From a virus (Duplodnaviria; Heunggongvirae; Uroviricota; Caudoviricetes), in IMG/VR virus record IMGVR_UViG_2740892441_000001: a stretch of 64,000 nt of DNA. One strand, written 5' to 3'. A model generated the notes under the pieces. It saw nothing but the letters and a program-made list of their open reading frames with translations, did no database searches and was not told the origin of the DNA. Position 1 is the first letter of the stretch, and each line of letters starts with the position of its first letter. The position numbers and the translations under genes are program-made. Shown piece by piece: positions 1 through 56,314 of the stretch.

Positions 1-319
1 GAACCTGAATAGCCAACTGGTTGTTGGTGTCGGCCATAGTGGTCGCCAGGAATTTATCAACGTCTACGTCACCAGCCAGAATACGCAGTTTCGCAACGCA
101 TTCTTCGAAGGTTGCTGCACCTTCAGGGATGGTGTCGTTAACGTCGATGAAGGTAGCTTCACTCAGCGTTTTTTCACGGTTGTACAGATATGCCTTTGAA
201 TTAATTTTCATAAAAGGCAGGATGGCAAACAGGTCATCGCGATCGATGATGGTTTCAATCACGCCCTGTTCAAGTTCGTTGTTAGACAGCTTTTCAGCTT
301 CTTCACGCAGTAATGGCAT
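1..319 (-). CDS. Major capsid protein, N-terminal fragment (gene runs off the window start)
   Basis: Minus-strand ATG at 317-319 preceded by AAGGGA RBS; translation MPLLREEAEKLSNNELEQGVIETIIDRDDLFAILPF...; sits directly downstream of scaffold-like gene in terminase-portal-scaffold-capsid order. Plus-strand ORF 21-341 judged antisense artefact. Confidence 0.45.
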   Translation of the reverse strand, partial: MPLLREEAEKLSNNELEQGVIETIIDRDDLFAILPFMKINSKAYLYNREKTLSEATFIDVNDTIPEGAATFEECVAKLRILAGDVDVDKFLATTMADTNNQLAIQV

Positions 320-344
320 CTATCAATTCCCTTTGATTTAGATG

Positions 345-1232
345 TTACTTAAGTCCAATTTTCCCCAGACCGGAGGCCAACTTATCCATAGTCGACTTGT
401 TCTTCGGTTGGGATATTGTGTAGGTCGATTTGGAATGTGAGCCTACACCCTGCTTGGCTTCGCTACGCATCAATGCGTCAGCTTCCGGATCTGCCCGCAC
501 AATGCGTTCAATCGCGGATTCAAACGGCAACGGCTTACCTTCACCGTCAACCAGAACAGCTCGTTCTTTATGACCTGCCGGTTTGTCATAACCCACTACG
601 CTACCGTCTTCACCCACTTCAAAATGAGAACCGTAGATCACGCGGGCTTTTGCCGGAGTCATCAGAACTTTGTCACGTAGGAAGAGAGAGTTACTGAAGG
701 AAGTGCCCACGGTCATCTCGACTAATTGAGATTTCAGTGATGCGTTTTCACTTTCCAGTGCTGTATAACGTTCGTCACGCTGTGCCAGCTCTGCCTGGTG
801 TGCTTCGATCATCTGTTTTTTAACAGCATCGAACTCACCACGACGCTCCAGTTCAGCTTGCTCCGCCTCACGACGTGCATTTTCTGCGGCCTGTTCAGCT
901 TCTAAAAGCTGGCGAGCACGCGCCGGGTCGATATCACCGTACTGAGCAAGCTGATCGGCCAATGTGCGCTCTTTCTCTTTGCGCTTCATGTTCTCTTTCA
1001 GCAGTTCAGCACCAGCTTTCTTGGTTTTGCGAAGTTCGGCCAGTAACTCTTCATGAGTCATGCCAGCGTATTCGTCATCACCCTTCGGCTGCTCTTTTTG
1101 TTCACCCTGTTTGTCAGGATCTTGTGTACTCTGCTCATTATCAGCAGCTACACCGCCAGCGCCTCCACGCTCATGCGCTTCAGCAACATCCATCAGACCA
1201 CGACGGGCCAAAAGCATTTGCCACAGTTTCAT
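345..1232 (-). CDS. Head scaffolding-like protein (charged, coiled-coil rich)
   Basis: 295 aa, highly charged with long E/A/R/Q-rich helical stretch; located between portal-like gene and capsid start. Assignment by position and composition only. Confidence 0.45.
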   Translation of the reverse strand: MKLWQMLLARRGLMDVAEAHERGGAGGVAADNEQSTQDPDKQGEQKEQPKGDDEYAGMTHEELLAELRKTKKAGAELLKENMKRKEKERTLADQLAQYGDIDPARARQLLEAEQAAENARREAEQAELERRGEFDAVKKQMIEAHQAELAQRDERYTALESENASLKSQLVEMTVGTSFSNSLFLRDKVLMTPAKARVIYGSHFEVGEDGSVVGYDKPAGHKERAVLVDGEGKPLPFESAIERIVRADPEADALMRSEAKQGVGSHSKSTYTISQPKNKSTMDKLASGLGKIGLK

Positions 1233-1253
1233 AAAAATTCCCTTTGTTACTTA

Positions 1254-1622
1254 TCACTCGTTCTCTTGAGTAGATGAGTCCCCATTCCCTCGGGGTTGAT
1301 CTTGCCCGCTTTCTTGGGCTGCGTCTTGATCATAAGTAAGTACTGACTTATTTTCAAGGGTATTTAGATCATTTTTTGGCGGAAAATTCAAGAGATCTTT
1401 ATCAAATTCCTTCTTCATCGCCTCAGTGATGTTCGGGAAAATCTTCTCAATCAGCATTTCCATCTGGTGACGACGTACAGAGTCCGGTGCCTGAAGTAAC
1501 GACAGTTTCTCGGCAACAGAAAATTCATCAGTAAGGCCACGAATATCGAAACTTTCTGGATACGCAATTAAAGAGTGGTCTTCGTCCAGATCTACCCCCA
1601 TCCATTTCGCAACCAGTAGCAT
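1254..1622 (-). CDS. Hypothetical acidic head-module protein
   Basis: 122 aa ORF; start overlaps end of upstream portal-like ORF; no recognisable motif. Confidence 0.35.
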   Translation of the reverse strand: MLLVAKWMGVDLDEDHSLIAYPESFDIRGLTDEFSVAEKLSLLQAPDSVRRHQMEMLIEKIFPNITEAMKKEFDKDLLNFPPKNDLNTLENKSVLTYDQDAAQESGQDQPRGNGDSSTQENE

Positions 1623-2827
1623 GATTTGGCGTTCAGCCTTTCCAGACGCTCTGCTTTTGTGACAAGCAAGCTATTTACACGCTGGAAGTCATACATTTTT
1701 GCGGCACCAGATGAGTTATCGATTCCCTGTGCGTTGTCCTGCTTCGTTCGCTCACCAGCTACACCAACTGAATGGTAGATTTCGTTAATCACCGTCTTAA
1801 TCGTAGTGATGATCATCTGAGCTTGTTTCGGGTCTGGTGACAGATAAAACGGCTGGTTTCCACCTTCAGAATCGTAGGTGAAGACTCGCTTTGTGCCCAT
1901 TTCAAGCACTTTAGTGTGGTTTTCATCACCAGGTAAAAGCGACTGTACCGGTATAGCCAACTGGCTAAATGTCTGATCCTGAATAATGGCATCAAGGTTT
2001 GACAGATAGTTTGCAACCGCACGATCAAGATAAGCGATATCATCGATCAACGATGGGCTGAAATACGGTGATTCACTTTCTCCAATACAATCAACAGGAA
2101 ACACAGGAACTACGCCGAGATTATGCTCACCGCTATCCTCTAAAATAACTTTTGCCTGACGGCGACCTGCTCCACCAGCGCCCTTCTTCACTTCCTCACG
2201 GAACAGATACCACTCGTTTTGTGTCCACAGACGATAACGTTGGTATTCCTGACCTGTAGAAGTAAAAGGATCTGCGTCATCACGAGCGACTTCCACAATT
2301 AACGCCCACAACATATTCCCGTCGTCGTCCCATGCCACATCCAGCATTTGCTGAGGTGAAATCCAGTAGGCGTAGGCGCGAGCATCTTTCTTTTTCTCGT
2401 CAGCTACTGACTCAACATCACCACTCATCGTGCTATCGACAACAACCCATATGCGACCGTAAATAGACGACTGCAAATCAATAGCGGCCATAAATGAGTC
2501 AATAGAGGCATTCTGGCGGGTCGCACGTTTCCAGAAATTGCGGATCTGCTCTGGTGCCTCTTCGATATTTCTATGAATGTCTTCTTTAAAGAGATATTTG
2601 TTGATGAGGTTTACCACCTCACGAGTGTGGTTGAAGCGATAAGCACGCTCAACTCGCTCCTTAAACTCCTGATCTCCCTCTTTAAAGTAACGAAAGATAT
2701 TGTCTGTAAACCAACCACGCCCGCCAGCGTAAGTGCTGGCGAGGAAGTCCCAATGTTCTTTTTTCTTTTCGTATTCCGGGTGGCGTCGCGCCACCAGATC
2801 CTTAATTTGTTTGTCGTTCAATTCCAT
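1592..2827 (-). CDS. Putative portal protein
   Basis: 411 aa ORF immediately downstream of large terminase on the same strand; RBS AAGG upstream; assignment by synteny. Confidence 0.5.
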   Translation of the reverse strand: MELNDKQIKDLVARRHPEYEKKKEHWDFLASTYAGGRGWFTDNIFRYFKEGDQEFKERVERAYRFNHTREVVNLINKYLFKEDIHRNIEEAPEQIRNFWKRATRQNASIDSFMAAIDLQSSIYGRIWVVVDSTMSGDVESVADEKKKDARAYAYWISPQQMLDVAWDDDGNMLWALIVEVARDDADPFTSTGQEYQRYRLWTQNEWYLFREEVKKGAGGAGRRQAKVILEDSGEHNLGVVPVFPVDCIGESESPYFSPSLIDDIAYLDRAVANYLSNLDAIIQDQTFSQLAIPVQSLLPGDENHTKVLEMGTKRVFTYDSEGGNQPFYLSPDPKQAQMIITTIKTVINEIYHSVGVAGERTKQDNAQGIDNSSGAAKMYDFQRVNSLLVTKAERLERLNAKSCYWLRNGWG

Positions 2828-2853
2828 TTGAATAACCTTAGATAATTACTTAC

Positions 2854-4110
2854 CTATCGAGAACCACCAAGAATAACACGGTTTTTGACTGGATACCTAC
2901 GATGTACTGGATAGCCCAATGCGTCTGCACTATGCTCAATGCCACCTGTCTTATCCATATCTCGTGTTCCAGGCTTGTAGATGACCTTTTCCAGTGAATC
3001 AATCAAATGCTTGCACTTCGGATCGATATACAGCCGGATATCTCCAGATGCGGTCATCAGCATTCGGTTAACAGCATTAACACGATCCGCAATTGGCGGG
3101 TGCTTTTTCGAATAATCGACACGTAAGAATCCCTTCTCTTTGAATATGTCTACGTCAGACTCCCCGCGAGCATGTTGGCGATAAGCACCTGCCGGATCTG
3201 GAAATACCGTTATCTGTGATTTCCAGCGCCAGAAGCGCCTCTCAAGCTCATCACAAACCTCTGCCGTGTTAGAGGAAAAGAGCACCAATTCATCAATTGC
3301 CCATAGCTCACCATTTGGCTGAGGTTGCAAAATTACGGAAGACATCGGGTCAATGTTGAAGTCCTGTCCTACCCATATAGGCAACCGAGGGTTGAACTGA
3401 AGCGGTTTAACATGCACGTTTCGATCGAACGGGTAGTAAACGCGCCCGGACATATTTTCAAAGCTGGCCAGGTACTCCTGAGCGAACGATTTAGGGTCCA
3501 TATCGTTCTTAGCAGCTTCAATTTCCGCCGTAGGCACAAACGGCGAATCAGCAGTTACAAACTGCCAGCTCTTCCACTGTCCCTTTCTTTGCAGCTCTAC
3601 GTTCTGGCCTATAGTCCACAGTTTGTGAAATTCCGAGAAGCCTTTTGGCGTACCAATGATCAGTGCACCGCCGCGTGTCGATGAAAGAGTAGGTCGTAAC
3701 ACCTTGTACCAGGTGTCAGCCTTCATATCCTGAAATTCATCAAGCACTACAAAATGCAACGCTACGCCGCGCAGAGTGTCAGGTTTATCAGCACCTTTGA
3801 GGGCGATCTCCGAACCGTTCTTCAACACGATTGTCATCGTGGTGTCGTTCTTTTTCCTAACCCACTTACGGGGCAGAACTTCCTGTAGATCGTCCCACAA
3901 AATCTGGCGAGCCATCTGGTAAGTAGGAGCGACATACCAGACCCTTTGCTTTTTTTCCTTTGCCGCCGCACGAATAATAGTGGAGATCGACAACCGGGAT
4001 TTTCCCCAGCGTCGACCAGCACAAACAACTTTAAATCGATGCGGAGACTGGAAGACTTTCATCTGTCCAGAATGCAGTTGCACAAGACTGAGCGAGGACG
4101 GGATTGCCAT
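2854..4110 (-). CDS. terL: Terminase large subunit
   Basis: 418 aa; Walker A-like VVCAGRRWGKS, Walker B-like HFVVLDEFQD, C-terminal nuclease-like region with conserved acidic residues. Confidence 0.9.
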   Translation of the reverse strand: MAIPSSLSLVQLHSGQMKVFQSPHRFKVVCAGRRWGKSRLSISTIIRAAAKEKKQRVWYVAPTYQMARQILWDDLQEVLPRKWVRKKNDTTMTIVLKNGSEIALKGADKPDTLRGVALHFVVLDEFQDMKADTWYKVLRPTLSSTRGGALIIGTPKGFSEFHKLWTIGQNVELQRKGQWKSWQFVTADSPFVPTAEIEAAKNDMDPKSFAQEYLASFENMSGRVYYPFDRNVHVKPLQFNPRLPIWVGQDFNIDPMSSVILQPQPNGELWAIDELVLFSSNTAEVCDELERRFWRWKSQITVFPDPAGAYRQHARGESDVDIFKEKGFLRVDYSKKHPPIADRVNAVNRMLMTASGDIRLYIDPKCKHLIDSLEKVIYKPGTRDMDKTGGIEHSADALGYPVHRRYPVKNRVILGGSR

Positions 4111-4742
4111 TATTCGTCCTCCCCTTCACTTCCATCATCTGTCGCATCAAATTCGCTTAGAGCTTCTTCTTCCAACGTCTCAAGCAATTCGTCATCGATG
4201 ATTTCAGGCTCGTCGTCTTCCTGACGTAATTTCGCCACCTGGGAAGGCGTAAGCTCACCAAATACCAGGTTCGGAATTTCTTCCTCGTCATTTTCCGCAT
4301 GATCCATGCCCAATGCTTTGGACGAAACTTCAAAGCATTTTGCAAGGGTATTACTGGCTCTCTGTAAGCTCTTGAGAGAACCCTCAATCGCCCCTAAAGG
4401 CTTACCCTCACGTTTGGCCGTAGTGACTTCGACCATCACCATCTGCCCCAACGCATACGCCCAGCCGTCATAACGTGTACGACGTTCTTCTATCTTTTCC
4501 GCACGGGCTTTAGCGCGAAGCTCTGCGTCAGATTTAAGAGACTCACGAACCATCTTCCCAACAGAGTCCGCGCCTTTCTCTAATCCTCGCTTTTTGAAAT
4601 GTCTGGAGAGTGTTTCACGACGAATGCCGTACTCTTCCTCCAGCTTTGAGAGTGTATATTCGCCTGACGTCCATTTGGCTTCAGCTTCGGCCCACTCCGC
4701 TGGTGTCAGGCGAGTTTTTACCTCGTCTTTTTCGACAGTCAT
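4110..4742 (-). CDS. Putative terminase small subunit / DNA-binding packaging protein
   Basis: 210 aa immediately upstream of and overlapping terL start; N-terminal HTH-like segment, acidic C-terminus; GAGGGA RBS. Confidence 0.5.
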   Translation of the reverse strand: MTVEKDEVKTRLTPAEWAEAEAKWTSGEYTLSKLEEEYGIRRETLSRHFKKRGLEKGADSVGKMVRESLKSDAELRAKARAEKIEERRTRYDGWAYALGQMVMVEVTTAKREGKPLGAIEGSLKSLQRASNTLAKCFEVSSKALGMDHAENDEEEIPNLVFGELTPSQVAKLRQEDDEPEIIDDELLETLEEEALSEFDATDDGSEGEDE

Positions 4743-4838
4743 AGATCCCTCTAAAACACACAGAGCGCGTCCATGCGCTCTAAAACAACTTGTTTACTGC
4801 ATCTGCTAACCAACTTGTTTTCTGGTGTGTCTAATTAG

Positions 4839-4936
4839 GTCTGGGCATGTCTTACTAAGCCTGCTTCCGTATATATTTAATAAGTTACTTATTATTTATA
4901 TATACGGAAGCAGGTCTTTAAATAACGTCCCAGACC
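4839..4936. repeat. Long near-perfect palindrome (CCTGCTTCCGTATATAT ... ATATATACGGAAGCAGG) with outer GGTCTGGG/CCCAGACC arms
   Basis: Read directly; lies between stop of 4939-5205 gene and the terS promoter region; a second copy of the same arm sequence is at ~35979-36037. Confidence 0.7.
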
Positions 4937-4938
4937 GA

Positions 4939-5205
4939 TTACATCACCAGTAACTTCGCTTTGGCTCGACCTAAAGTGGTTAACCCAAGAGTCCGGCGGT
5001 GATAGCGATTGTCACTGCGTTGGCGCGTATGCCCTTTCTCCACCAGCCCCTTTTTTATCAGAGCGCGAATTGAGAACTGGATACTTTGCTTTGTTGTCTT
5101 GTACGGCAAAACTTCAAGCAATTCGTCCAGATCAAGTAGATGACCTCGCTCATAACCGAGATTGAGCGTTTTGATGATGTCCTTTTGTTTGTCGGTTAAC
5201 GTCAT
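4939..5205 (-). CDS. Small putative DNA-binding protein (winged-helix-like)
   Basis: 88 aa, basic C-terminus; first gene downstream of the 5215-8112 operon. Confidence 0.45.
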   Translation of the reverse strand: MTLTDKQKDIIKTLNLGYERGHLLDLDELLEVLPYKTTKQSIQFSIRALIKKGLVEKGHTRQRSDNRYHRRTLGLTTLGRAKAKLLVM

Positions 5206-5214
5206 GGCAAATCC

Positions 5215-6105
5215 TTATGCCGGTAAAGCAATTTCTAACGGTTTATCCAAAGGTTGTTTGTCGAATGCCAGCAGTGGCAGCGTGTCAGGCAGTCGACGAC
5301 CAAAGTCAGGGTTTCGATACACACCATACAACGGAGACGTAAAGCTCAGGTTGTGAATGTCCTTGAGCAGCTTCACAATGCTGGCCTCGTCCACCAGACT
5401 GTCGGCAATGTCCTGAATCGTCGTGCCACGATTCCGCCCAGCTTTTGCCAGGGAACTGTTCTTGTGGTAGTCCGCCACCAGATCACGCAGTGCACGGCGA
5501 CGACGTGACTCGCTCATTGCGAACAACTCTTTGACGATCGCCTCGTTATCACCCGGGTCGGAGCGGAAATGGCGCTGGAACACACGCAGTGCACTTTCAT
5601 AGCTCTTCGGTCGCTCAGGGCGGATGAACTTGAACCCTGCTTTCATGGCGAAGGGATTGTATTTGCTCATCGAGGATTGGATCTCAATGATTGGCCGGTC
5701 ATGCATCCTGCTAACCAGGTTAATCATTCGATAAGAGACGCCTACGCCACGGTACTGAGTATCCACAACTGAGCGGCTGATCACCGCAAAGTTGTTATTC
5801 ACGTACCGGCCCCAGTACTGGTTAGCCACGGTGGTATTGGTGGTTGGTTTCAACTTAGGAAACATGCGATGGCGAGGTGCCAGCAGAAGTTTCGGGTAAG
5901 CCATAACCACGACGCCCACCAGACGGTCATCCAGTTCGCAGCGATAGTATGTTGGCGCGAAAGGTTTGCCGTCTGTTTTGTAGTGAAGCGACTTAAGAGC
6001 GTGCCAGTCCTCTACAGTTCCCTTTGTGACAGTCATTCGCTCCAGAAAGTCCAGATGACGCGGAAACTCTTCAGGGCGGTAGCGTTTAATGATGATGTCC
6101 GTCAT
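5215..6105 (-). CDS. Hypothetical protein (possible acyltransferase-like fold)
   Basis: 296 aa; stop/start overlap with upstream ATPase gene implies operon; weak GNAT-like segment RCELDDRLVGVVVMAYP. Confidence 0.5.
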   Translation of the reverse strand: MTDIIIKRYRPEEFPRHLDFLERMTVTKGTVEDWHALKSLHYKTDGKPFAPTYYRCELDDRLVGVVVMAYPKLLLAPRHRMFPKLKPTTNTTVANQYWGRYVNNNFAVISRSVVDTQYRGVGVSYRMINLVSRMHDRPIIEIQSSMSKYNPFAMKAGFKFIRPERPKSYESALRVFQRHFRSDPGDNEAIVKELFAMSESRRRRALRDLVADYHKNSSLAKAGRNRGTTIQDIADSLVDEASIVKLLKDIHNLSFTSPLYGVYRNPDFGRRLPDTLPLLAFDKQPLDKPLEIALPA

Positions 6106-6767
6106 GAATGGACCTCATCATAACTACCATTGTGATATTCCACCTTCACGCGTTCTTTGTAGTGCTTGGTGATCTGCATATCCGGGCGCAGCGCGTTCTT
6201 CAGGTCTTCGTGAGTCGTCGCCACCATTACCGTCGCACCAACCTTTCGAGCGGCACGCTGGAGGTTAGATGCCACAACCTGAGCGGTTACACGGTCTAGA
6301 ACAGCACCGAACTCGTCAGCAGCCCACACTTTAGCGCCTGACTCAATCAGTTTGGCAATCTTGAGACGATATTTCTGACCGTCTGACATTTCAGAAGGCT
6401 TGCGAACAAACAGATATGCATCGTTCAGACCTGCCATAGATAACAACCCAAGCGCATCACTGGTAGTTTTGCCCAGTTGGTCAATGACGTTAACCTCATT
6501 ATCGAAGGTAAAGTCATCAATAGAAGCTACAGAAAGCCCTTCATCCTTCATCTGGCGTTGCAACTCGCGCAACACAACGGATTTACCTGAACCGGATTGG
6601 CCGGTGATGTACACCACATCGCCCTGCTTCACTTCCAGCTCCAGATTGTCGTAAAGCGTCCACTCTTTTTCGTCCAGGCCAAGCCCGAACGACTCAGCGA
6701 TTTCCAACGTGCGCGTGGTTTTATTTACGCGTGTCTGAAACGATACGTTGATGATGTATTTGCTCAT
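6102..6767 (-). CDS. ABC-type ATPase domain protein (soluble)
   Basis: Walker A GQSGSGKS, ABC-signature-like MSDGQKYRL, Walker B VWAADEFGAVLD, H-loop-like ATTHED. Confidence 0.65.
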   Translation of the reverse strand: MSKYIINVSFQTRVNKTTRTLEIAESFGLGLDEKEWTLYDNLELEVKQGDVVYITGQSGSGKSVVLRELQRQMKDEGLSVASIDDFTFDNEVNVIDQLGKTTSDALGLLSMAGLNDAYLFVRKPSEMSDGQKYRLKIAKLIESGAKVWAADEFGAVLDRVTAQVVASNLQRAARKVGATVMVATTHEDLKNALRPDMQITKHYKERVKVEYHNGSYDEVHS

Positions 6768-7432
6768 GCAGCCATCTCCCCGGAAGAGATCTTCTCCGCA
6801 TATGCCACAAATGCGTCTACCCCGCTTTCTCCCGTCATTTCTTCCATGTGGGCAAGCAAATCACCAACAACAATGGCAGAGCCAGCAGGGAGCGTTTTAA
6901 AGCCCAATACGTCGATAACACGTACTTCTTCCGCTGCAACTTCACGACTGATCTCGGTGTGTTCATCCTTCTGTCGTTTAGTTTCTTCGCCCAGATCGAT
7001 AACTAGCGAGTCGGTGTCCATTTCTTCTGTCATGCTGCCAACGAGAACATTCAACTCCCGCTCTTCAAAGCCGAAAACCTCGATATCGTCCAGAACAAGC
7101 GACTCAAGTTCTTTCTGTAGCTTAATTGCATCGTAATCAATGCTGGCAAGTCGGTTATCTTCAAGGCGCTTCGCACGAACCTCGTCATCACTGAGATCAT
7201 CGCGAACAATAACCGGTACGCGCTCAAGTCCAGCAAAAATTGCAGCCTCACGGCGGCCGTGGCCAGTAATAATTACGTCGTTCTTATCGACCGTAATTGG
7301 CTGGTCAAATCCGCGCTTTTTAATGGCTGCGGCCAGATCTCGGATCTGCTGTTCATCATGCTTTTTGGCATTCATCTCATAGGGAATAAGATCTGCCGGG
7401 TCGCGATATACGATTTCAAACTTTTTGGTCAT
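6764..7432 (-). CDS. ParB-like nuclease domain protein
   Basis: ParB N-terminal-like motif ITGHGRREAA...VPVIV; start set at MTKKFEIVY (ATG overlapping upstream stop). Confidence 0.6.
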   Translation of the reverse strand: MTKKFEIVYRDPADLIPYEMNAKKHDEQQIRDLAAAIKKRGFDQPITVDKNDVIITGHGRREAAIFAGLERVPVIVRDDLSDDEVRAKRLEDNRLASIDYDAIKLQKELESLVLDDIEVFGFEERELNVLVGSMTEEMDTDSLVIDLGEETKRQKDEHTEISREVAAEEVRVIDVLGFKTLPAGSAIVVGDLLAHMEEMTGESGVDAFVAYAEKISSGEMAA

Positions 7433-8112
7433 TACATACACTCCTTGTAGTAGTCGACCAGCCACACCAGAGCCTCACCAGCGTTCTCCATTTCATTACC
7501 GGTGTTAATAGCCTGCTCTTTGATGATGTTTTTTATGGTTTCTGCAACACGATCTGACGCATCGAAAGTTACTTTGAAGCGCATGGTCTGATGTTCCGCA
7601 CCCACACGTTCGGTTTTCTCTCGTTTGTCGGTATCGACAGGCTCATCACTACCACGAGACAACGCCTCCAGTGCTTCAAGGTCGATTGCCGCCTCTTTTG
7701 CTAAAACCATCGAGATTTCGTCGTCATACGGGGCGATTTCAGACAGTTGATAGTCAAGTTCTGACTGAATTTCTTCAATGAAGCGTTGCAATGCGATTTG
7801 GTCGTCTTCACCGTATCGCTCGTTGTCCACTAGTGACATCTGTTTAGCTACGACATCGCTAATTTTGCCCACAGAAAGCACCGGAACCGTTGAAATTCCT
7901 TGCTCAATAGCAGCACGCCAGCGATGTTCGCCGCCGAGGATTTCAAAAAATCCATCTTCAAGTTCACGAGCCAAAATTGGCTTAAAAAAGCCCAATTTTT
8001 CGATAGAACCTTTCAGTTTTTCAAAATTCTGCGCACCAACCGAATTGGTGTTCCAGGTATTCGGGCGAAGGTTGGCAACATCAACCTGCAAAATCGTGAT
8101 TTTTACATCCAT
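7432..8112 (-). CDS. ParB-like nuclease domain protein
   Basis: ParB/Srx signature FEILGGEHRWRAAIEQGISTVPV; first gene of the operon, divergent from helicase gene. Confidence 0.65.
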   Translation of the reverse strand: MDVKITILQVDVANLRPNTWNTNSVGAQNFEKLKGSIEKLGFFKPILARELEDGFFEILGGEHRWRAAIEQGISTVPVLSVGKISDVVAKQMSLVDNERYGEDDQIALQRFIEEIQSELDYQLSEIAPYDDEISMVLAKEAAIDLEALEALSRGSDEPVDTDKREKTERVGAEHQTMRFKVTFDASDRVAETIKNIIKEQAINTGNEMENAGEALVWLVDYYKECM

Positions 8113-8194
8113 TTTATTGCTACAATCAACTAAGTAATTACTTACTTATTATAATAGCCAAATAACATACAAAAGGCACTAAGGAAAGAGGTTT

Positions 8195-9754
8195 ATGACT
8201 GTTCGGATTGTATCTAACGCAGTAAATGCGCTTATTTCTGGCGCAGATGACAAGGTAAAGCAACTGGTGCAACAGATGTTGAGCTACGAAGTCGAGACTG
8301 GCGACTGGAAAGGCACAAGCACGATGTTCAACTGGAGTAAAAACTCGTTCCCTGCTGGCTTTGCCAAGCCTGTAGCGGCGAACTTGAACAAGGCGGGCAT
8401 CAAATGTGTTCATATCCGCAAAGACAAAGCCCCGGCGCTTGGAAAGCCAAATCCGGCGGTTAACCCATTCCCATACAATCCTGATTATGCGTATCAGGAT
8501 CAGACTGTGGAAACGCTAGTTCGCGAGGGAATGATGATTGCGCAGATCGCTACTGGTGGCGGAAAATCTAATGTTGCCTGCAAAGCAGCTGCACGTATCG
8601 GTCGAATGACATTATTTTTAACAACCCGCTCTGTTCTGATGTTTCAGATGGCCGAAAACTTCCAGAGATCCATCGACTACCGCGCCGAAAATGGCGAACC
8701 GTGGTTAAAAGACCAAAAGGTTGGAGTAATTGGCTCGGGTGAGTTCCAGGTATCGCGACATATCAACGTTGCTACAGTTCAAACTCTTGCAAGTTTCCTC
8801 GAAGAACCACCACGCGATGCAACACCAGATAAGAAAAGCTACCACCTCAAACGTCGGGAGTTGGTGAAACGCTTCCTTTCAAGTGTCTCTCTTCTTATTC
8901 TGGAAGAGGCGCATGAGTCTTCAGGCTCTAATTTCTATGACATTGCCAGATTATGTGCGAACGCAGACTATCGCCTGGCGCTTACGGCAACGCCGTTCAT
9001 GAAGGATTCTACGGAAGCCAACATGCGTCTGATGGCTGTGGCCGGGCGAATTGAAATAAAAGTCACGGAAAAGTACCTGATTGATAAAGGCATTCTGGCA
9101 AAGCCATACTTCCTTTATCATAAAGTTGCCTACAAACCGGACGAGGTCAGAATCAAGGCAGAACTTGCTAACAAACACCTCAATTTTAGAGTAGGTATGA
9201 GCACTGCCTACCAAAAGGCTTATCAGTTGGGGATCGTGTATAATTTGGGACGTAACGAGGCCATTGTGCGCGAAGCATTGCTCTATAAGCAACACTCTCT
9301 CAACTGCATGACTCTGGTTCGTCTTAAACGCCACGGGCAAATCCTGATGGAGATGATGAAGGAGTCCGGTCTTAGAGTTGACTTCATCTATGGGGAATCG
9401 AACCAGGCGACAAGGCAAGCAAAGCTGAACAGTTTAGCGTCTGGTGAAATAGATGTTTTAATAGGCTCGACTATTCTGGATGTCGGTGTTGATGTGCCAA
9501 GCGTTGGTGCGGTCATTCTTGCTGGTGGCGGGAAAGCAGAAGTTGAAATGAGACAACGTGTCGGTCGTGGCTTACGAGCCAAGAAGAATCAGGCAAACGT
9601 GTGTTTTATCACTGATTTCATTGACATTAGCAACAAATACCTGTTGTCTCACTCTTATGAGCGAAAACACATCATCGACACTACACCTGGCTTTGCAGAA
9701 GGTGTATTGCCTATTGATGGCGCATTCGATTTTGGAGTTCTGAAACGAGATTAG
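8195..9754 (+). CDS. Superfamily-2 DEAD/DEAH-box helicase
   Basis: Motif I IATGGGKSN, motif II ILEEAHE, motif III LALTATP, motif VI RQRVGRGLRA; RBS AAGGAAAGAGG. Confidence 0.8.
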   Translation: MTVRIVSNAVNALISGADDKVKQLVQQMLSYEVETGDWKGTSTMFNWSKNSFPAGFAKPVAANLNKAGIKCVHIRKDKAPALGKPNPAVNPFPYNPDYAYQDQTVETLVREGMMIAQIATGGGKSNVACKAAARIGRMTLFLTTRSVLMFQMAENFQRSIDYRAENGEPWLKDQKVGVIGSGEFQVSRHINVATVQTLASFLEEPPRDATPDKKSYHLKRRELVKRFLSSVSLLILEEAHESSGSNFYDIARLCANADYRLALTATPFMKDSTEANMRLMAVAGRIEIKVTEKYLIDKGILAKPYFLYHKVAYKPDEVRIKAELANKHLNFRVGMSTAYQKAYQLGIVYNLGRNEAIVREALLYKQHSLNCMTLVRLKRHGQILMEMMKESGLRVDFIYGESNQATRQAKLNSLASGEIDVLIGSTILDVGVDVPSVGAVILAGGGKAEVEMRQRVGRGLRAKKNQANVCFITDFIDISNKYLLSHSYERKHIIDTTPGFAEGVLPIDGAFDFGVLKRD

Positions 9755-9756
9755 TT

Positions 9757-10035
9757 ATGAGCGAAAAGAAAACAACTTATTGTCAGGTAGCATTGACTGA
9801 TAAGGCCAATGACAAACTGGGAAAATTTCAAATGAAACTAAAAGAAAAAAACATCAAAATGTCCAAGGCTGAAGTTATCAATACCATTCTGGAGACGATG
9901 ACGATGGCTGAATTTGACAAGGTTTCATCTGCCGTTGGCGTCTCTGCTAAGGCTCGTGAAAAAATCATGCGCATCTATGAGAACTCTAATATGACAAAGG
10001 AAGACCTAGAACAAATTCTAAGCAAACTGCCATAA
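9757..10035 (+). CDS. Hypothetical small protein, coupled to helicase
   Basis: 92 aa ORF starting 2 nt after helicase stop. Confidence 0.5.
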   Translation: MSEKKTTYCQVALTDKANDKLGKFQMKLKEKNIKMSKAEVINTILETMTMAEFDKVSSAVGVSAKAREKIMRIYENSNMTKEDLEQILSKLP

Positions 10036-10177
10036 CATTTCACATTCCCTCCATCCGCCAATTCCAAGATGTGCTTACTTGTAAAAGGAGCACATCAATT
10101 GATGTGGCAGAGAATGAATTTAATCAAGACAAACATTGAATGATTAATAGACTACGATAGTGTCCAACAGGGCATTC

Positions 10178-36058: not shown

Positions 36059-36652
36059 CTAAGCAGCCTTCTTTGATGGTCTTTTTTTCCTGATCACATT
36101 CGCAGGATCATACCCTCCCAGACTTTTCATGACGTCCAAAGGGATCTTGCTTATAGAGTGCCCAGCGTCCTGACAGAATCCTCGAAAAACAACGAGCATA
36201 CTGCCACCTGGGTTGATGTTTACTTCTACCTGACCCAGATTGACGTCAGGCTCGACAAACGCTACGCGGCCACCAGACAGAATAATCGTCTCATTCGCAC
36301 ACTCTGTTGCACGCTCATACCACTTTGTATCTAGGGATTGAGGAATTAGCATCACTGTTGTAACTCCGCGAGCCTGCTCACGTATAGCCGCATCAATCCA
36401 GGGGGAGATTTTGGAGTAGGGTGGATTGAGGAAGGCAATTGTACCTGGCTGTCCCCATTCAGATTTCAAAGCATCACGCTCAACGCCTATGAAATTAGGC
36501 AGCTTTGCATTGTCCTTGTTGCAGGCAACGTCAACATCAAATGTCACTCCAAGATAACGTTGAATGGCAGAAAACAGCCAGTCAGGTGTTCTCCAGAGGT
36601 CACGAAGAGAGTTGTCGCGCTTTCGCTGTTTGATTTTTTCGGCTGCAATCAT
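36059..36652 (-). CDS. Phage Dam-type DNA N6-adenine methyltransferase
   Basis: DLWRTPDWLF and AFLNPPYS motifs characteristic of the phage Dam family. Confidence 0.8.
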   Translation of the reverse strand: MIAAEKIKQRKRDNSLRDLWRTPDWLFSAIQRYLGVTFDVDVACNKDNAKLPNFIGVERDALKSEWGQPGTIAFLNPPYSKISPWIDAAIREQARGVTTVMLIPQSLDTKWYERATECANETIILSGGRVAFVEPDVNLGQVEVNINPGGSMLVVFRGFCQDAGHSISKIPLDVMKSLGGYDPANVIRKKRPSKKAA

Positions 36653-51558: not shown

Positions 51559-51784
51559 GTGTTTTTCCTTTGTGGTTATTTTGATACAGATATTAAGTGT
51601 GTTTGAGAGGCGAACAATCCAGATAACACGGCCATTAAGAATGTTCACAGACACATGATTATGGCAAATTCATAGGTAAGTGAATACCTATTTTTATGGG
51701 CAACAAAGATTTCTAGATGTTACAAGCCACTCTATAATCGCAGTCACTTAATGATGACAACCAAACGAAAAAGGAGAACTGACG

Positions 51785-52288
51785 GTGAAACGCGTAATTA
51801 TAGGGACGATGGCCATTGCTCTGATCGGATGCGTACCAAAACCACCTCAAGATGAAAAGTCAGCTGGCGGGTACGTTGATATTTACTCCACTTCAAGCGT
51901 AGCAATTGCCCAAGACAGAGCCGACAAATTGTGTGGAAGCCATGCCTATTATGTCTCTAACGACAATGATTTAACCAAAGTCATGGGTAGATACGCGCCT
52001 TCATTCCCAAAAATCAGGTTCAACTGTGATCTTGAAATGGCCGCTTATCTGGGCAGCAAAGAGGCAAAGGAGATCAAAATGAAACGCATAGAGGAAGCCT
52101 ACAAGGAGATGTACAAGGCCCAATATGAGCTGAAAGAAGTGCGCCGTAAGAACGCTGATCCGAAGAAGCTGGAGTCTTACACAGAACGCGATCCGGACGG
52201 TACTATTCGCAGCTACAGCTTCTTGAATGGCAAGTCGTGCGAATCAATCGTGTACCCAGACGGCACGGGCAAAACGACTTGTGATTAA
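51785..52288 (+). CDS. Putative lipoprotein
   Basis: Signal peptide MKRVIIGTMAIALIGC with lipobox; RBS AAGGAGAA; terminator downstream. Confidence 0.6.
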   Translation: MKRVIIGTMAIALIGCVPKPPQDEKSAGGYVDIYSTSSVAIAQDRADKLCGSHAYYVSNDNDLTKVMGRYAPSFPKIRFNCDLEMAAYLGSKEAKEIKMKRIEEAYKEMYKAQYELKEVRRKNADPKKLESYTERDPDGTIRSYSFLNGKSCESIVYPDGTGKTTCD

Positions 52289-52290
52289 TT

Positions 52291-52325
52291 CTTCAGGAGC
52301 ACCTCGTATGGGGTGCTTTTTATTT
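52291..52325 (+). terminator. Rho-independent terminator (GCACCTCGTATGGGGTGC + TTTTTATTTT)
   Basis: Hairpin and T-run read directly. Confidence 0.7.
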
Positions 52326-52760
52326 TGGGTCGCGAAACAGCATGTCGGCCATTTGCGAGGATTTGACGTAGCACTTTGCCATCATCGGCTGACTAGGGTT
52401 TGATGCGATCATGTCGGACACCAGCATTGACCCATAGCCTTTTCCGCGAAGCTCTTTGACAATACTGACGGCACGGAGTTCAAGTCAAGGTGCGCCAGTC
52501 GGATCGAGTGCGGCACAGAACCAGATTAGTCCTACTTTTTGTCATCAGAACGATGCAGCAGGATGTAGATAAAATGCCCGGAGTATTGGCCCCGCTCGTT
52601 CGTCTTGATTGCCAGTCTGGTCTGCTGCTCAAAGGTTTTACCCCCCCTTTGATGTGAGGATCTCTTCGTAGAAGTGACCTTTGCGTGCGCCGTCCTCGAA
52701 CTCAGCCATGATAAAAGGCATGTCTGTCACAGTTGCTGCCCTTGAATAAAATTCACTCAT
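52326..52760 (-). pseudogene. GNAT-family acetyltransferase remnant with multiple frameshifts (one at a C9/G9 homopolymer)
   Basis: Hand translation gives MSEFYSRAATVTDMPFIMAEFEDG..., then in other frames ...VSIVKELRGKGYGSMLVSDMIASNPSQPMMAKCYVK... (GNAT motif A); homopolymer at ~52644-52652. Confidence 0.5.
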
Positions 52761-52816
52761 GTATTAATCCTAAAAGCCCTCAGTGTCTTTCTAATGCACC
52801 ATATTTTATGCCTCGG

Positions 52817-53479
52817 TTAAACCCTGAGATTACGTTTAAAACGTCTCAGTGGCTTTTTACGCGCTGCGTTTATGCTTATGACGCCAGCTTTTGGACGTGG
52901 GTCAACAAGGTTAAGCTCTTCTTCGCTGTGGTATTCGAGGTCGAACTCACGTTTTACATGTCTGATGTAGATTGCGGTGAGCAGGCTATCTTTGGTCAGA
53001 AAGTGTCCGTAGGATTTGCGGATCACTTCTTCTACCTTCTCGATTTTCTCACCACCCATACAGAGATGATTAAACCGGCTGTGTTTCCGCAACATTTCGT
53101 CTACTGGGCCTGAGTAAACCTTGTCTACTTTCCCAAAACGGATGATTTTCCCTGTGTCTGCGGATACGAGGCAAATCAGCTTGTCTGGTGATAAACGATC
53201 TCGCCACGTCACACCTGAACGGAGTGTGTTGAAGTAGGGCGCATCCAATCCGATGATCGGTTTACGAAATGCGAGCAATGGAACGTACCTGATACAACTA
53301 TTCAAATGAAAGTTCACACCAGCCTTATCAAGTTTAATTCTGGTTTCGTAGATCGGGCACTTCGCCGCTATACCGCAGATATCACAAAGTAACTTCTGCT
53401 TATTCAGGTTGGAATTTGATTCGATAGTGTAGGAGCCGTCCTCAAGACGACGAACCCAGCGCGTGCGTTTTAGATCCAT
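52817..53479 (-). CDS. Hypothetical protein
   Basis: 220 aa ORF with Cys pair CDICG; no family recognised. Confidence 0.5.
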   Translation of the reverse strand: MDLKRTRWVRRLEDGSYTIESNSNLNKQKLLCDICGIAAKCPIYETRIKLDKAGVNFHLNSCIRYVPLLAFRKPIIGLDAPYFNTLRSGVTWRDRLSPDKLICLVSADTGKIIRFGKVDKVYSGPVDEMLRKHSRFNHLCMGGEKIEKVEEVIRKSYGHFLTKDSLLTAIYIRHVKREFDLEYHSEEELNLVDPRPKAGVISINAARKKPLRRFKRNLRV

Positions 53480-53539
53480 AATCGTTTTTTCAGTAGTTAT
53501 TGGCCGATGCTACGATAACTCATTAGGCATACCTTAATC

Positions 53540-54220
53540 TGCATTTGCCTGTTTTACTTATCCCAGTTATCCACTGGATAGATCCAAATAAGAGATCCCA
53601 AGTAAGATCAAATAGAAGATCCAAAGAGATCCCCGATCGCCTCTAGCCGTTGCGGTTACTGGTCTGAAAGGGTGTTGCCATCCACTATGGAGAGCAAAGA
53701 AACCTCTGTAGAGAGCTGAATAACCGCTATGAAGAGTAAAACAACCACTCTGGAGAGCTGTATATATCCACTGTAGAGAGTAGAGCACATTGTCTTTTAT
53801 GGATAACTTAATGACTTAATTCTTCATTAACATACTGATATACATAGATATATTTTAAACTCTACTCTTAGTCATGATTCTTATGTCCTTAAATATCCAC
53901 AGAAGAGTAGAGTTACCTGTTCTTGAAATCCTCTGATTTTTATCCACAGGCCCGATCCAGTAATTCAGATCACAAAGAGAACCAAAGAGACCCATAAAGA
54001 CCCAATAAGATCCCCGCCCACCTCAAACCGTTGTGCCATCTGCCTTCAGACATGATCGATATCCACTATAGAGAGCGAATAATCCACTATAGGGAGCAAA
54101 GCAACCACTATAGAGAGGAGAAAAACCACTATAGACGGTAGGATAACCGCTGTGATGAGTGCTACTATCCACTGTAATCAGCAAAGGCCACCAAAGCCGT
54201 CGAATAACAAGAGACATTTG
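53540..54220. promoter_or_regulatory. Plasmid-type replication origin region: two arrays of 22 bp-spaced iterons, DnaA boxes, GATC clusters and an AT-rich segment
   Basis: Iterons (A/T)TCCACTATAGAGAGC-like at ~53681-53780 (5 copies) and 54061-54182 (6 copies); perfect DnaA box TTATCCACA at 53940-53948 plus near-matches at 53566-53574 and 53893-53901; 6 GATC in 53570-53640, 4 in 53960-54060. Confidence 0.75.
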
Positions 54221-54222
54221 GA

Positions 54223-55278
54223 ATGAGCGAAAACGGCAATAAAAACATAGCGATCGTTGAAGCATTTTCAGAAACAGATAAAAAGACAGGCGAAGTTGTT
54301 ACGTTGGTTCCTAACACTAATAACACTGTTCAGCCTGTTGCTTTGATGCGTCTGGGCCTCTTCGTTCCGACGCTGAAATCGACATCCAGAGGAAGAAAGG
54401 GGCAAATGGTCTCTATGGATGCCTCTGCTGAACTCAAACAGCTGTCTCTGGCAAAAGCCGAAGGGTACGAAGACATAAGGATCTCTGGCCTTCGGCTTGA
54501 TATGGATAACGACTTTAAAACGTGGGTGGGAATAATCCACGCGTTTGCCAAACACAAGGTCGTTGGCGATACTGTCACGTTGCCGTTCGTTGAGTTTGTA
54601 AGGCTGTGTGGCATTCCGACCGCCAGGTCATCAGCGAAGTTACGCAAACGCCTGGACAGTTCGCTAAGCCGTATTGCCACAAATACCATCTCGTTCCGTA
54701 GCAAAGGCTCTGATGAGTTTTACGTAACGCATCTTGTGCAAACGGCAAAATATAGTGTCAAGCACGATACGGTCGAACTGAAAGCAGATCCCAAGATTTT
54801 CGAACTCTACCAGTTCGACAAAAAGGTTCTTCTGCAACTCCGGGCTATAAACGAACTCTCAAGAAAAGAATCCGCTCAGGCGCTTTATACTTTTATTGAA
54901 AGTTTGCCGCCTGATCCGGCACCAATATCACTAGCCCGTTTACGCGCCAGACTTAATCTGACAAGTCGCACTATTACTCAGAATGCGACGGTAAGAAAGG
55001 CTATGGAACAGCTGCGAGAGATAGGATATCTCGATTACACGGAAGTTAAGCGCGGAAACTCGGTCTACTTCGTCATCCACTATAGGCGGCCAAAGTTACG
55101 CCAGGCACAAATATCAACAAAAATCGATAATGATGAGACGGAATATAGCCTCCCAGATGAGAATCAAGATGACATTATCGACGTTGTGCCTGACGAAAAA
55201 GAAGGCAAAATGGTCATGTTGAGTAAAGAAGAACTGGCGCTTCTCGAAGAGTTGCGCAAGGCAAAGACTCGCAAATAG
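54223..55278 (+). CDS. Putative iteron-binding replication initiator (RepA-like)
   Basis: 351 aa gene flanked upstream and downstream by iteron arrays; assignment rests on context, not a recognised sequence match. Confidence 0.65.
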
Positions 55279-55282
55279 CCCA

Positions 55283-55762
55283 ACCACTGTAGTTAGTAGT
55301 AAGGCTCACTATCCACTGTAGTGAGCCTTACTTATATCTGTAATTCGCTATCCACTATAGTGAGTATCGTTATCTGTTGATAACCACTGTAGGCAGTAGA
55401 ATGCAAATACTGAATCAAATGTTAGTGATCACTAACACTGATGAAACAAGGGCTGCGAGGTTAGTGGTCACTGGGTATCTTGGAAAATTTACTGTCTATA
55501 GTGGTTGTTGTCGCCCTCATCTTTGAGCGTATCCACTGTGGCGAGTGGATATCCACTGAAAACAGCAAAGGCTTACTCACCATAGTGGATACCCGCTGGA
55601 CATCTCACTCCAATACTCACCATAGTGGTTGTTTGATGCGAATGAAAGGCTGTCTACTCGCTACAGTGGTTAGCAGATATGTAGGAAGAGAGGACTGCAG
55701 ACCACAGTGGATAATGAGCTGATACGAATGCGGTGAGCTGGCTACTCACCGCAGTGGTTGGT
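55283..55762. repeat. Downstream iteron array in both orientations (incA-like control locus)
   Basis: ACCACTGTAG, ATCCACTGTAGTGAGC, ATCCACTATAGTGAGT, then inverted copies (CACCATAGTGGAT, CTACAGTGGTT, CACCGCAGTGGTT). Confidence 0.7.
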
Positions 55763-55766
55763 GCTA

Positions 55767-55979
55767 TTAGTGTATTTTCTTCAACAGGCCCCAAAGTGTT
55801 CCGGCTTTTGTAGTCAGTTTTCCTGTTTCTGGATCGTACATACGCCATTCACGCCGCTGGTGGACGATATACCCATCTTCACGTTCCAGACGCTCAAGAA
55901 TGCCAGGCTGCTTGAAACCCTTAGCACGCCAGTATCCGCTTGTTTTCTCGATTTCCAGACCTGCCAGTGTTAATGCCAT
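55767..55979 (-). CDS. Hypothetical small protein
   Basis: 70 aa ORF overlapping the next gene's stop. Confidence 0.4.
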   Translation of the reverse strand: MALTLAGLEIEKTSGYWRAKGFKQPGILERLEREDGYIVHQRREWRMYDPETGKLTTKAGTLWGLLKKIH

Positions 55980-56314
55980 TATCCAACCTCCTTGCAGTCA
56001 TCGAAAAGGTAGCTTTGCTGAGAAGCGTGCACGCCATAGAAGCCCTTGTATTTGTTGTATACGAAGTGGTCTTCTCCGACGCCGGTTAATTTGCCATTAC
56101 GGTTTGTGAGATATGGGGATGACAATACTCGATCGTCACGCACAACATAGAACTGGTCGCCGCTGTCTACGACCATCGCTCCATATGGTGCTTTTATGAC
56201 GTCGGTAAGAGCGCCATTCTTAACGTCGGCTACAGACATTTCACACTGATAAACAGTGGTGTCGGCCACAACGATCGAGGAAAGGAACAACAGAGCGAAT
56301 GGGATGGCCTTCAT
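55979..56314 (-). CDS. Small secreted protein
   Basis: Signal peptide MKAIPFALLFLSSIVVA. Confidence 0.5.
   Translation of the reverse strand: MKAIPFALLFLSSIVVADTTVYQCEMSVADVKNGALTDVIKAPYGAMVVDSGDQFYVVRDDRVLSSPYLTNRNGKLTGVGEDHFVYNKYKGFYGVHASQQSYLFDDCKEVG

Follow-up and report, generated by a model that had tools for sequence, protein, structure and literature searches.

Replicons of the P1 and RepFIB type

The replicon of phage P1 is organised as oriR/incC - repA - incA, and its annotated record comprises a DnaA box, five Dam sites, five incC iterons in 21-bp phase which overlap PrepA, the repA gene and nine incA iterons. Dependence on GATC is common to P1 and to RctB, the initiator of V. cholerae chromosome II. 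In the systems of RepE (mini-F), pi (R6K) and RctB, the rep promoter carries an inverted partial iteron to which Rep binds as a dimer. For RepFIB, the iterons downstream of rep constitute the control and incompatibility determinant and those upstream are associated with the origin (PMC11983097). Among the phage-plasmids, a copy number of 5.5 per chromosome was measured for Cyrano (pLF82), which also produces virions (PMC9928086).

Identity of the replicon

The window, i.e. the entire 64,000-nucleotide stretch analysed, was assigned in a preliminary description to an element with a P1-like iteron replicon of incC-repA-incA architecture at 53540-55762, replicating as a low-copy plasmid while also encoding terminase, portal and capsid. 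All features detected fall within that span. As a whole, the locus is very probably the plasmid-prophage replicon of an SSU5/pLF82-type E. coli phage-plasmid, a member of the P1 RepA/RepFIB family of iteron-controlled theta replicons, including a control circuit and a tandem-duplicated origin that we infer below. The replicon itself is already known: public records annotate the gene as repA, and its type is IncFIB. What is added here is modest and anatomical, namely a precise map of sites, evidence for a conserved tandem origin whose copies have decayed unequally, and a palindrome conserved within the control locus.

The replicon DNA occurs with 100% identity in complete, circular and annotated E. 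coli plasmids of type IncFIB, and hundreds of circular plasmids carry the replicon; on an identical plasmid, IncFIB was the only replicon found by MOB-suite. Identity is 99.4% to the phage-plasmid Cyrano (pLF82) and 83% to SSU5. Positions 1-10097 of the window align at 97.8% to the capsid/portal/terminase region of pEcoFMU073332c, which places the replicon in an SSU5-type siphovirus setting with terminase, portal and capsid genes, as had been claimed. Colinearity with pEcoFMU073332c over the full window was rejected; outside the replicon, identity is 97-98%, with indels. Because Cyrano is a published plasmid of about five copies that makes virions, and because the DNA matches known plasmids, the preliminary interpretation is supported, and the present element would, judging by identical DNA in circular IncFIB plasmids and by the copy number of Cyrano, likewise replicate as a plasmid.

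The RepA initiator

The repA gene (54223-55278, + strand) is an intact ORF of 351 aa, the length given previously, and encodes an iteron-binding initiator of the Rep_3 family (WH1-WH2) according to Pfam, homology and a fold model. With the curated Pfam cut-offs for Rep_3 (PF01051/PF21205), Rep3_N (WH1) is detected with E 1.3e-10 (42.2 bits, cut-off 22.4) and Rep3_C (WH2) with E 1.3e-4 (22.6 bits, cut-off 21.1). NCBIfam has no match for RepA, nor for either neighbouring gene. Cyrano and many plasmids encode a 100% identical protein; RepA is 91% identical to that of SSU5, pHCM2 and Y. pestis, 59% identical to E. coli RepFIB RepA (E 4e-146) and 49% identical to P1 RepA over 267 aa (E 5e-93). The likeness to P1 proposed earlier therefore holds for layout, with the same order of parts as in the annotated P1 record, and for homology, but among characterised initiators that of RepFIB (F/P307/pO157, IncFIB; 59-66% identity, E between about 1e-113 and 1e-146), rather than that of P1, is closest to RepA.

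Sequence searches of the PDB with RepA, and with a profile of its relatives (36 sequences), matched no chain, and a fold search was therefore used. The AlphaFold model of RepA matches RctB domains 2-3, RepE, pi and TrfA with a probability of 1.0 and E-values from 2e-6 to 5e-4 (Foldseek: RctB domains 2-3, 2e-6; RepE, 1.5e-5; pi, 5.5e-4). TM-scores are modest (0.28-0.54) because the ends of RepA are disordered. Confidence in the model is moderate, with an overall pLDDT of 63.6; most 10-residue blocks in residues 61-290 average 70-89, and residues 191-220 reach only 49-60. The preliminary description had made its case depend on a winged-helix initiator fold comparable to RepA, RepE and pi, and this fold is present in the model. 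Domain matches and predicted fold together establish RepA, within the confidence of the model, as a two-winged-helix Rep_3 initiator.

Iterons upstream of and within repA

Eleven iterons precede repA. This count agrees with the preliminary description, which had placed them at 22 bp; the period is 21 bp, and the iterons form not one run but two arrays, of five and six copies, 295 bp apart. The predicted RepA site is 19 bp long, with the consensus A(A/T)CCACT(A/G)T(A/G)G(A/T)GAG(C/T)A, and recurs at two helical turns (21 bp) in both arrays. The distal array (53678-53786, + strand, 22.9-28.0 bits, repeat families D1/D2) has iterons starting at 53680, 53701, 53722, 53743 and 53766, i.e. with spacings of 21, 21, 21 and 23 bp, and is kept in SSU5, pHCM2, Rahnella and Pantoea. 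The proximal array (54059-54185, + strand, 17.7-27.5 bits) lies directly 5' of repA in the position of P1 incC, with starts at 54061, 54082, 54103, 54124, 54145 and 54167 (spacings 21, 21, 21, 21 and 22 bp).

A weight matrix trained on these 11 upstream sites and scanned over the window recovers 12 untrained sites 3' of repA (15.8-25.9 bits) plus one inside the gene, and only one single site of at least 15 bits elsewhere in the remaining ~61 kb. The iterons are non-random and confined to the replicon locus. Iteron variants are lineage-specific and occur in more than one array per locus: GACCGC is found in the distal and downstream arrays of Pantoea S18, and GCGAG in all three arrays of P. conspicua. 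From such variants, the arrays appear to evolve in concert with the lineage.

The iteron-like site within the repA coding sequence (55073-55093, + strand, 15.5 bits) is kept in SSU5, pHCM2 and Rahnella. A regulatory role is disfavoured, as the site in Pantoea S18 ignores the change of the iteron core; coding constraint is the likelier cause of the resemblance.

DnaA boxes, GATC clusters and AT-rich spacer

The DnaA boxes, the two GATC clusters and the AT-rich segment of the preliminary description were all recovered. The distal tandem pair of DnaA boxes, TTATCCCAG and TTATCCACT (53560-53575, + strand), aligns base for base with two boxes of P1 oriR and includes a one-mismatch box at 53567; further one-mismatch boxes are located at 53798 (- strand) and 53893. 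It is followed by six GATC (Dam) sites in heptamer-like repeats (53581-53638); P1 oriR has five homologous Dam sites. This cluster is the densest in the window, which elsewhere has at most 3 GATC per 80 bp.

Between the distal iterons and the proximal DnaA box extends an AT-rich spacer (53787-53939), a candidate unwinding region with 72% AT (over 53787-53940) vs 54% in the window. Its base composition is maintained across relatives, its sequence is not. The proximal DnaA box TTATCCACA (53940-53948, + strand) is the sole exact copy in the window and less conserved, with 0-3 mismatches in relatives. The adjoining GATC heptamer cluster (53954-54012) is decayed and combines three GATC (53954, 53968 and 54009) with three degenerate heptamers (GAAC, GACC and GACC). 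An origin composed of DnaA box, GATC heptamers and 21-bp-phased iterons is present upstream of repA, and this arrangement occurs twice in tandem. GC skew over the window mostly tracks gene orientation, with no turning point and no origin signal at the replicon.

Downstream control array and palindrome

Three prime of repA, the second array in both orientations noted in the preliminary description comprises 12 iterons, six per strand. Their 21-mers start at 55280, 55309, 55348, 55380, 55529 and 55549 on the + strand and at 55488, 55572, 55612, 55653, 55694 and 55741 on the - strand, in a first group of four (55280-55400, + strand) and a second group with two in + and six in - orientation (55488-55761), both defined by the weight matrix. 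Start-to-start spacing is 20-47 bp, except for one gap of 108 bp which spans the central palindromes. Such a dispersed array with both orientations corresponds to incA of P1 and E-K of RepFIB.

The palindromic element in the middle of the array (55421-55475) is present in two copies, GTTAGTGATCACTAAC (55421-55436) and GTTAGTGGTCACTGGG (55460-55475). In 32 of 90 related loci its motif GTTAGT-N4-ACTAAC is found, 34 times in total and in every case 3' of repA, with about one occurrence expected. It is the only palindromic partial-iteron-like element of the locus.

ORFs beyond 55762 are small minus-strand genes (a Cra-like 70-aa product and hypotheticals), with no parA annotated within ~12 kb. The parAB-parS partition operon, which in P1 lies directly 3' of incA, is absent from this position; it is not a defining part of the replicon.

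Candidate promoter of repA and proposed control

A candidate extended -10 of the repA promoter (TGcTACTAT, 54160-54168, + strand) overlaps the last proximal iteron at a position analogous to the -10 of P1 PrepA and belongs to a block conserved between the window, SSU5, Rahnella and Pantoea; transcription of repA is predicted to start near 54173-54176. A consensus promoter scan (8 sites vs 4.2 expected) did not list this candidate because its -35 is poor, and listed other weak candidates. The best of the scan, at 53827-53854 in the AT-rich spacer, was not adopted, as SSU5 does not conserve it. Minus-strand ORFs of 73-80 aa running through the iteron arrays are annotated in no public record and were treated as spurious. 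A search of 53300-56000 against Rfam yielded no RNA family at E <= 1, and there is therefore no sign of antisense-RNA control.

Homology with P1 and RepFIB suggests that the origin would be opened through the joint action of RepA monomers bound at its iterons, host DnaA bound at the adjoining boxes and Dam-methylated GATC heptamers, the distal origin possibly using the adjacent AT-rich spacer. After firing, SeqA would sequester the hemimethylated GATC cluster, and RepA bound to the iterons adjoining repA would repress its own promoter. The 12 downstream iterons would keep the copy number low through titration of RepA and through pairing ("handcuffing") with the origin iterons.

A widespread group of phage-plasmids from E. 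coli, Salmonella and Yersinia would be maintained by this replicon. Among the relatives are carriers of CTX-M-15 and virulence plasmids such as pMT1. The iteron arrays are natural targets for incompatibility-based curing, as already shown for RepFIB.

Two origin-like modules in tandem

Upstream of repA lie two oriR-like modules in tandem, both of which contain a DnaA box, GATC heptamers and iterons; this doubling was missed in the preliminary description. The layout is found in 48 related loci, including those of Yersinia, Salmonella, Kluyvera, Rahnella, Erwinia, Pantoea and Cedecea. In the literature searched, no earlier description of the iteron layout of pMT1/pHCM2/SSU5 or of a tandem origin was found. 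Sequence comparison suggests that a P1-type origin was tandemly duplicated in the SSU5/pLF82 clade. Firing probably takes place at the distal copy (53560-53786), which retains all origin hallmarks; its proximal counterpart (53940-54185), with half of its GATC sites lost, would mainly act as operator and promoter of repA and as an extra pairing partner.

A broader proposal, tentative and possible rather than probable, joins this duplication to the palindrome. In the clade of SSU5, pHCM2, pMT1 and pLF82 together with many plasmids of Pantoea, Erwinia, Rahnella and Cedecea, an origin duplicated long ago would have divided its work, with DnaA/Dam-dependent firing at the distal copy and repA operator function plus intramolecular pairing at the proximal one, and the palindrome GTTAGT-N4-ACTAAC of the clade would be bound by RepA dimers, in the manner of the inverted partial iterons of mini-F or pPS10. 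If true, a dimer-sensing element, not known from P1-type control circuits, would be added to one.

The roles of the two modules could also be reversed, which we regard as rather unlikely: the proximal module, lying against repA like P1 incC/oriR, would then be the working origin, and the distal module either an accessory array for copy control or incompatibility, comparable to an incA placed upstream, or a stand-by origin. The proximal module indeed holds the only exact DnaA box of the window and occupies the position of the functional P1 oriR, and about half of the related loci retain 4-5 proximal GATC; furthermore, Klebsiella FIB(K) possesses extra upstream iterons in mixed orientation, resembling a control array. 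However, proximal GATC number varies from 0 to 5 across related loci, and three of the six proximal heptamers lack GATC in the window and in all relatives with RepA identity of at least 91%, whereas all 48 loci have preserved a distal cluster of 5-6 GATC and a distal DnaA box with 0-1 mismatch. The distal DnaA/GATC segment is also nearer to P1 oriR (67% identity) than the proximal one (59%), and in P1 methylated heptamers are required for origin function.

That both modules are independent functional RepA-dependent origins, redundant or fired alternatively, e.g. in plasmid vs induced mode, appears improbable. Each retains a DnaA box, phased iterons and its first and last GATC heptamers, these heptamers being unchanged in four divergent taxa, and many genera have kept the duplication; yet decay of the proximal heptamers is uneven between lineages, and for the replisome genes that the element itself encodes (DnaE, RNR, exonucleases) a role in lytic replication is more plausible. 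An inactive relic in an element maintained by another replication system is extremely improbable given the intact, highly conserved repA, the apparently concerted evolution of the arrays and the occurrence of IncFIB as sole replicon of an identical plasmid and in hundreds of circular plasmids.

Comparison with known systems

In its model, RepA has the WH1-WH2 fold in common with RepE, pi and RctB, at sequence identities of just 12-14%, and the iteron logic is also shared; unlike in those systems, the palindromic partial-iteron-like element is located downstream of repA, in the control region.

The replicon agrees with P1 in its tandem DnaA boxes, GATC heptamers, 5-6 iterons in 21-bp phase (which here overlap the candidate promoter region), repA and downstream array of mixed orientation. 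The DnaA/GATC stretch can be aligned to P1 oriR at the DNA level, and both replicons belong to phage-plasmids, although the present phage is an unrelated siphovirus. In contrast to P1, the iteron core is ATCCACTATAGAGAG instead of GATGTGTGCTGGAGGG, the origin module occurs twice in tandem, and the control array has 12 instead of nine iterons, contains an internal palindromic element which P1 lacks and is followed by a convergent Cra-like gene instead of parAB. RepA exceeds that of P1 by 65 aa; it is extended at the N-terminus and has an acidic C-terminal tail whose end is helical.

The likeness to RepFIB comprises a rep gene with origin iterons (BCDD'D'') on its upstream side and control iterons (E-K) on its downstream side, for which a handcuffing model applies, and a DnaA site and GATC cluster upstream of rep. 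RepFIB of E. coli and Salmonella differs in its single upstream module, its iteron core ATAAGCTGTAG and the lack of GTTAGT-N4-ACTAAC. Some sibling SSU5-like elements of E. coli (e.g. pECOH89) carry a different RepA, ~48% identical. SSU5, pHCM2, pMT1 and pLF82 (Cyrano) possess the same replicon, with the same two-module upstream layout and downstream array; SSU5 and pHCM2 differ in 2-3 extra downstream iterons (three in SSU5) and in a diverged first copy of the palindrome.

Replication initiator

The replicon lies at 53540-55762, where every feature listed in the preliminary description is present. Its repA (54223-55278, + strand) encodes the 351 aa protein noted there, with the Pfam domains Rep3_N (WH1) and Rep3_C (WH2), both exceeding the curated thresholds. 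The protein is 49% identical to P1 RepA (267 residues, E 5e-93) and 59% to the RepA of an E. coli RepFIB, the IncFIB-plasmid replicon (342 residues, E 4e-146); tblastn against plasmids returns thousands of RepFIB-type genes at 60-80% identity. RepA sequence searches of PDB gave no match. An AlphaFold model based on 36 homologues (mean pLDDT 63.6, termini disordered; most 10-residue blocks of residues 61-290 average 70-89, residues 191-220 only 49-60) matches RctB domains 2-3 (E 2e-6), RepE (1.5e-5), pi (5.5e-4) and TrfA. Given both Pfam domains and these fold matches, the protein thus possesses the winged-helix initiator fold on which the earlier reading depended. Relative to P1 RepA, residues 1-39 form an N-terminal extension and residues 294-351 an acidic, low-confidence C-terminal tail, closed by a conserved helix (335-350, consensus EELxLLEKxRKxK); the tail is common to RepFIB proteins.

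Related elements and flanking genes

The 2.3-kb replicon stretch recurs unchanged (100% identity) in complete circular E. coli plasmids, typed by MOB-suite as IncFIB and non-mobilizable; it matches Escherichia phage Cyrano (pLF82) at 99.4% and Salmonella phage SSU5 at 83%. At the DNA level, pHCM2-like Salmonella plasmids and 63 Yersinia plasmids are among the matches, and RepA is 91% identical in both groups and in a Y. pestis plasmid of pMT1 size. In every record examined of the identical plasmids, Cyrano and SSU5, the gene carries the annotation repA or RepA replication protein. The replicon is already annotated, typed IncFIB and known from SSU5-type phage-plasmids, and the preliminary reading is correct. 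A different RepA, ~48% identical, occurs in pECOH89 and other E. coli SSU5-like elements. Cyrano has a measured copy number of 5.5 per chromosome and yields siphovirus particles, with ciprofloxacin as inducer (PMC9928086).

Over its first 10 kb, the window aligns at 97.8% with the part of pEcoFMU073332c, one of the E. coli plasmids sharing the replicon, that holds capsid, portal and terminase. Identity to this plasmid outside the replicon is 97-98%, with indels. About 1.25 kb (51598-52845) are missing from pEcoFMU073332c and Cyrano, which are otherwise 98% identical; this insert contains a 167-aa ORF (51785-52288, +) whose N-terminus is lipoprotein-like and for which Pfam gave no match. The replicon is flanked by genes for a 70-aa product (55767-55979, -), annotated in Cyrano as "P1 Cra protein", and a 220-aa protein (52817-53479, -), annotated there as ASCH-domain; neither product has a match in Pfam or NCBIfam. 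Unlike in P1, no parAB operon was found adjoining the replicon.

Iterons

A position weight matrix, trained on the 11 upstream repeats only and run over the window, recovered 12 untrained downstream iterons (15.8-25.9 bits) plus one site inside repA, and just a single site in the remaining ~61 kb reached at least 15 bits. The repeats are therefore a genuine family specific to this locus, with the consensus A(A/T)CCACT(A/G)T(A/G)G(A/T)GAG(C/T)A; at position 14 the upstream copies mostly have A (GAGAG), the downstream copies mostly T (GTGAG). The preliminary count of eleven upstream iterons holds, but they do not form a single run: five distal (starts 53680-53766) and six proximal copies (starts 54061-54167) are separated by 295 bp. 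The 22-bp spacing reported for them was slightly off: within the arrays, seven of nine intervals measure 21 bp and the other two 23 and 22 bp. The second array described after the gene is likewise there in both orientations, with six iterons on + and six on - at irregular spacing (20-108 bp).

The intragenic site ATCCACTATAGGCGG (55073-55093, +, 15.5 bits) covers the codons for VIHYRRP of repA and is kept in SSU5, pHCM2 and Rahnella. It probably results from coding constraint, because the Pantoea S18 copy does not track the iteron change of that locus. In its "T" subtype, the 5' half of the iteron (ATATCCACT) agrees with the DnaA-box consensus TTATCCACA at seven of nine positions, and a one-mismatch DnaA box (53567) reaches 9 bits when scored as an iteron; from this resemblance, RepA and DnaA may share or compete for some sites.

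Tandem origin modules

The upstream region consists of two copies of one module (53545-53790 and 53918-54190, 67% mutual identity), each running from DnaA box through GATC heptamers to iteron array. Both GATC clusters of the preliminary description were recovered. The distal one (53581-53638) has six GATC and is the densest in the window, all other parts of which hold at most three per 80 bp; the proximal one (53954-54012) has three GATC and three decayed heptamers, with GATC turned GAAC or GACC. The only exact DnaA box in 64 kb, TTATCCACA, is at 53940, and further boxes with one mismatch are at 53567, 53798 and 53893. Between the modules lies the AT-rich segment (53787-53940), which is 72% AT where the window averages 54%.

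SSU5 and pHCM2 keep the two-module layout, and so do two further plasmids, a conjugative one from Rahnella and one from Pantoea, whose RepA proteins are 76% and 70% identical, respectively. The literature searched, which did not extend to the original pMT1 paper, contained no account of how the iterons of pMT1, pHCM2 or SSU5 are arranged. A RepA profile scan with one genome per species, in which upstream regions were classed by lag-21 autocorrelation and GATC density, gave 48 tabulated loci (Yersinia, Kluyvera, Buttiauxella, Rahnella, Erwinia, Pantoea, Cedecea, Franconibacter, Phytobacter and a Tolumonas MAG), all with a distal GATC cluster and nearly all with two iteron arrays. P1, E. coli and Salmonella RepFIB, a Pantoea large-plasmid group and others, in contrast, have a single module. 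The distal cluster possesses 5-6 sites in 48/48 loci, each time with a DnaA box of 0-1 mismatch at most 45 bp upstream; the proximal cluster varies from 0 to 5 sites and has a less regular DnaA box. Lineage-specific iteron variants recur in more than one array of a locus (Pantoea S18 carries GACCGC in its distal and its downstream array, P. conspicua GCGAG in all three), which argues that one cognate RepA reads them all.

Within the model of a plasmid-prophage replicon of the P1 RepA/RepFIB family, we lean towards the distal module as the firing origin, with the proximal module now serving mainly as operator and pairing array. The main rival takes the proximal module as the origin; its position is P1-like and the exact DnaA box belongs to it, and the constancy across the 48 loci lies on the distal side. 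Firing of both modules is a further possibility.

Candidate promoter and downstream palindrome

The last two proximal iterons are near-invariant in four divergent taxa, and so is TG(c/a)TA(c/g)TAT, which overlaps the beginning of the final one. In the window this element is TGCTACTAT (54160-54168); it corresponds in relative position to the -10 of P1 PrepA, and we infer it to be the extended -10 of the repA promoter, although it was not among the hits of a consensus promoter scan.

A palindrome, GTTAGTGATCACTAAC (55421-55436), and its degenerate copy GTTAGTGGTCACTGGG (55460-55475) separate the first four downstream iterons from the remainder. GTTAGT-N4-ACTAAC, with one mismatch allowed, occurs once in the whole window; among 90 related loci, 32 carry it, with 34 copies in all (~1 expected in shuffled sequence), always downstream of repA. 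P1 lacks it, as do the FIB loci examined from E. coli, Salmonella and Klebsiella. Its arm (CC)ACTAAC is similar to the invariant iteron 5' half (CCACT[A/G]T), and variants with a GGTT centre read TAACCACTAAC on the bottom strand. Dimers of mini-F RepE and pPS10 RepA bind an inverted partial iteron, and by this analogy the palindrome is, speculatively, a putative RepA-dimer site. The composite reading, a subfunctionalised duplicated origin together with a RepA-dimer site in the control locus, appears rather doubtful.

Proposed replication control

The data establish the family and fold of the initiator, the map of its sites, the homology to P1 and RepFIB, and the plasmid state of near-identical elements; the mechanism is proposed from the established behaviour of P1 and RepFIB. 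RepA monomers would occupy the phased iterons and DnaA the flanking boxes, and melting would occur either where the methylated GATC heptamers lie or in the adjacent AT-rich spacer. After initiation the hemimethylated cluster would be sequestered by SeqA. RepA on the promoter-proximal iterons would repress repA, and the 12 downstream iterons would keep copy number low by titrating RepA and pairing with origin iterons. The element encodes a Dam-family N6-adenine methyltransferase (36059-36652, -; PF05869, E 2.5e-38), which could keep the origin GATC cluster methylated independently of the host; P1 likewise uses its own methylase.

Comparison with known replicons

The P1-type architecture proposed earlier is borne out by the annotated P1 record, in which a DnaA-binding site, five Dam sites, five incC iterons, repA and nine incA iterons follow each other in the same order as in the window. 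P1 incC iterons start 21, 21, 21 and 22 bp apart, PrepA sits within them, and five of the nine incA iterons are on the opposite strand according to our iteron scan. The distal DnaA-box pair and GATC heptamers are alignable to P1 oriR at 67% identity (e.g. ACTTATCCCAGTTATCCACTGGATAGATCCAA in the window, ACTTATCCACATTATCCACTGGATAGATCCAA in P1), whereas the 5' half of the iteron core is unrelated. For RepFIB, upstream iterons have been assigned to the origin, and the downstream block by itself exerts displacement, consistent with handcuffing (PMC11983097). A more distant relative, the Klebsiella IncFIB(K) plasmid, has a single origin module adjoining rep and extra mixed-orientation iterons at -579 to -359 relative to rep (locus L011), a second upstream array added in a different way than in the window. 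The tandem origin and the palindrome are modest refinements of a known kind of replicon.
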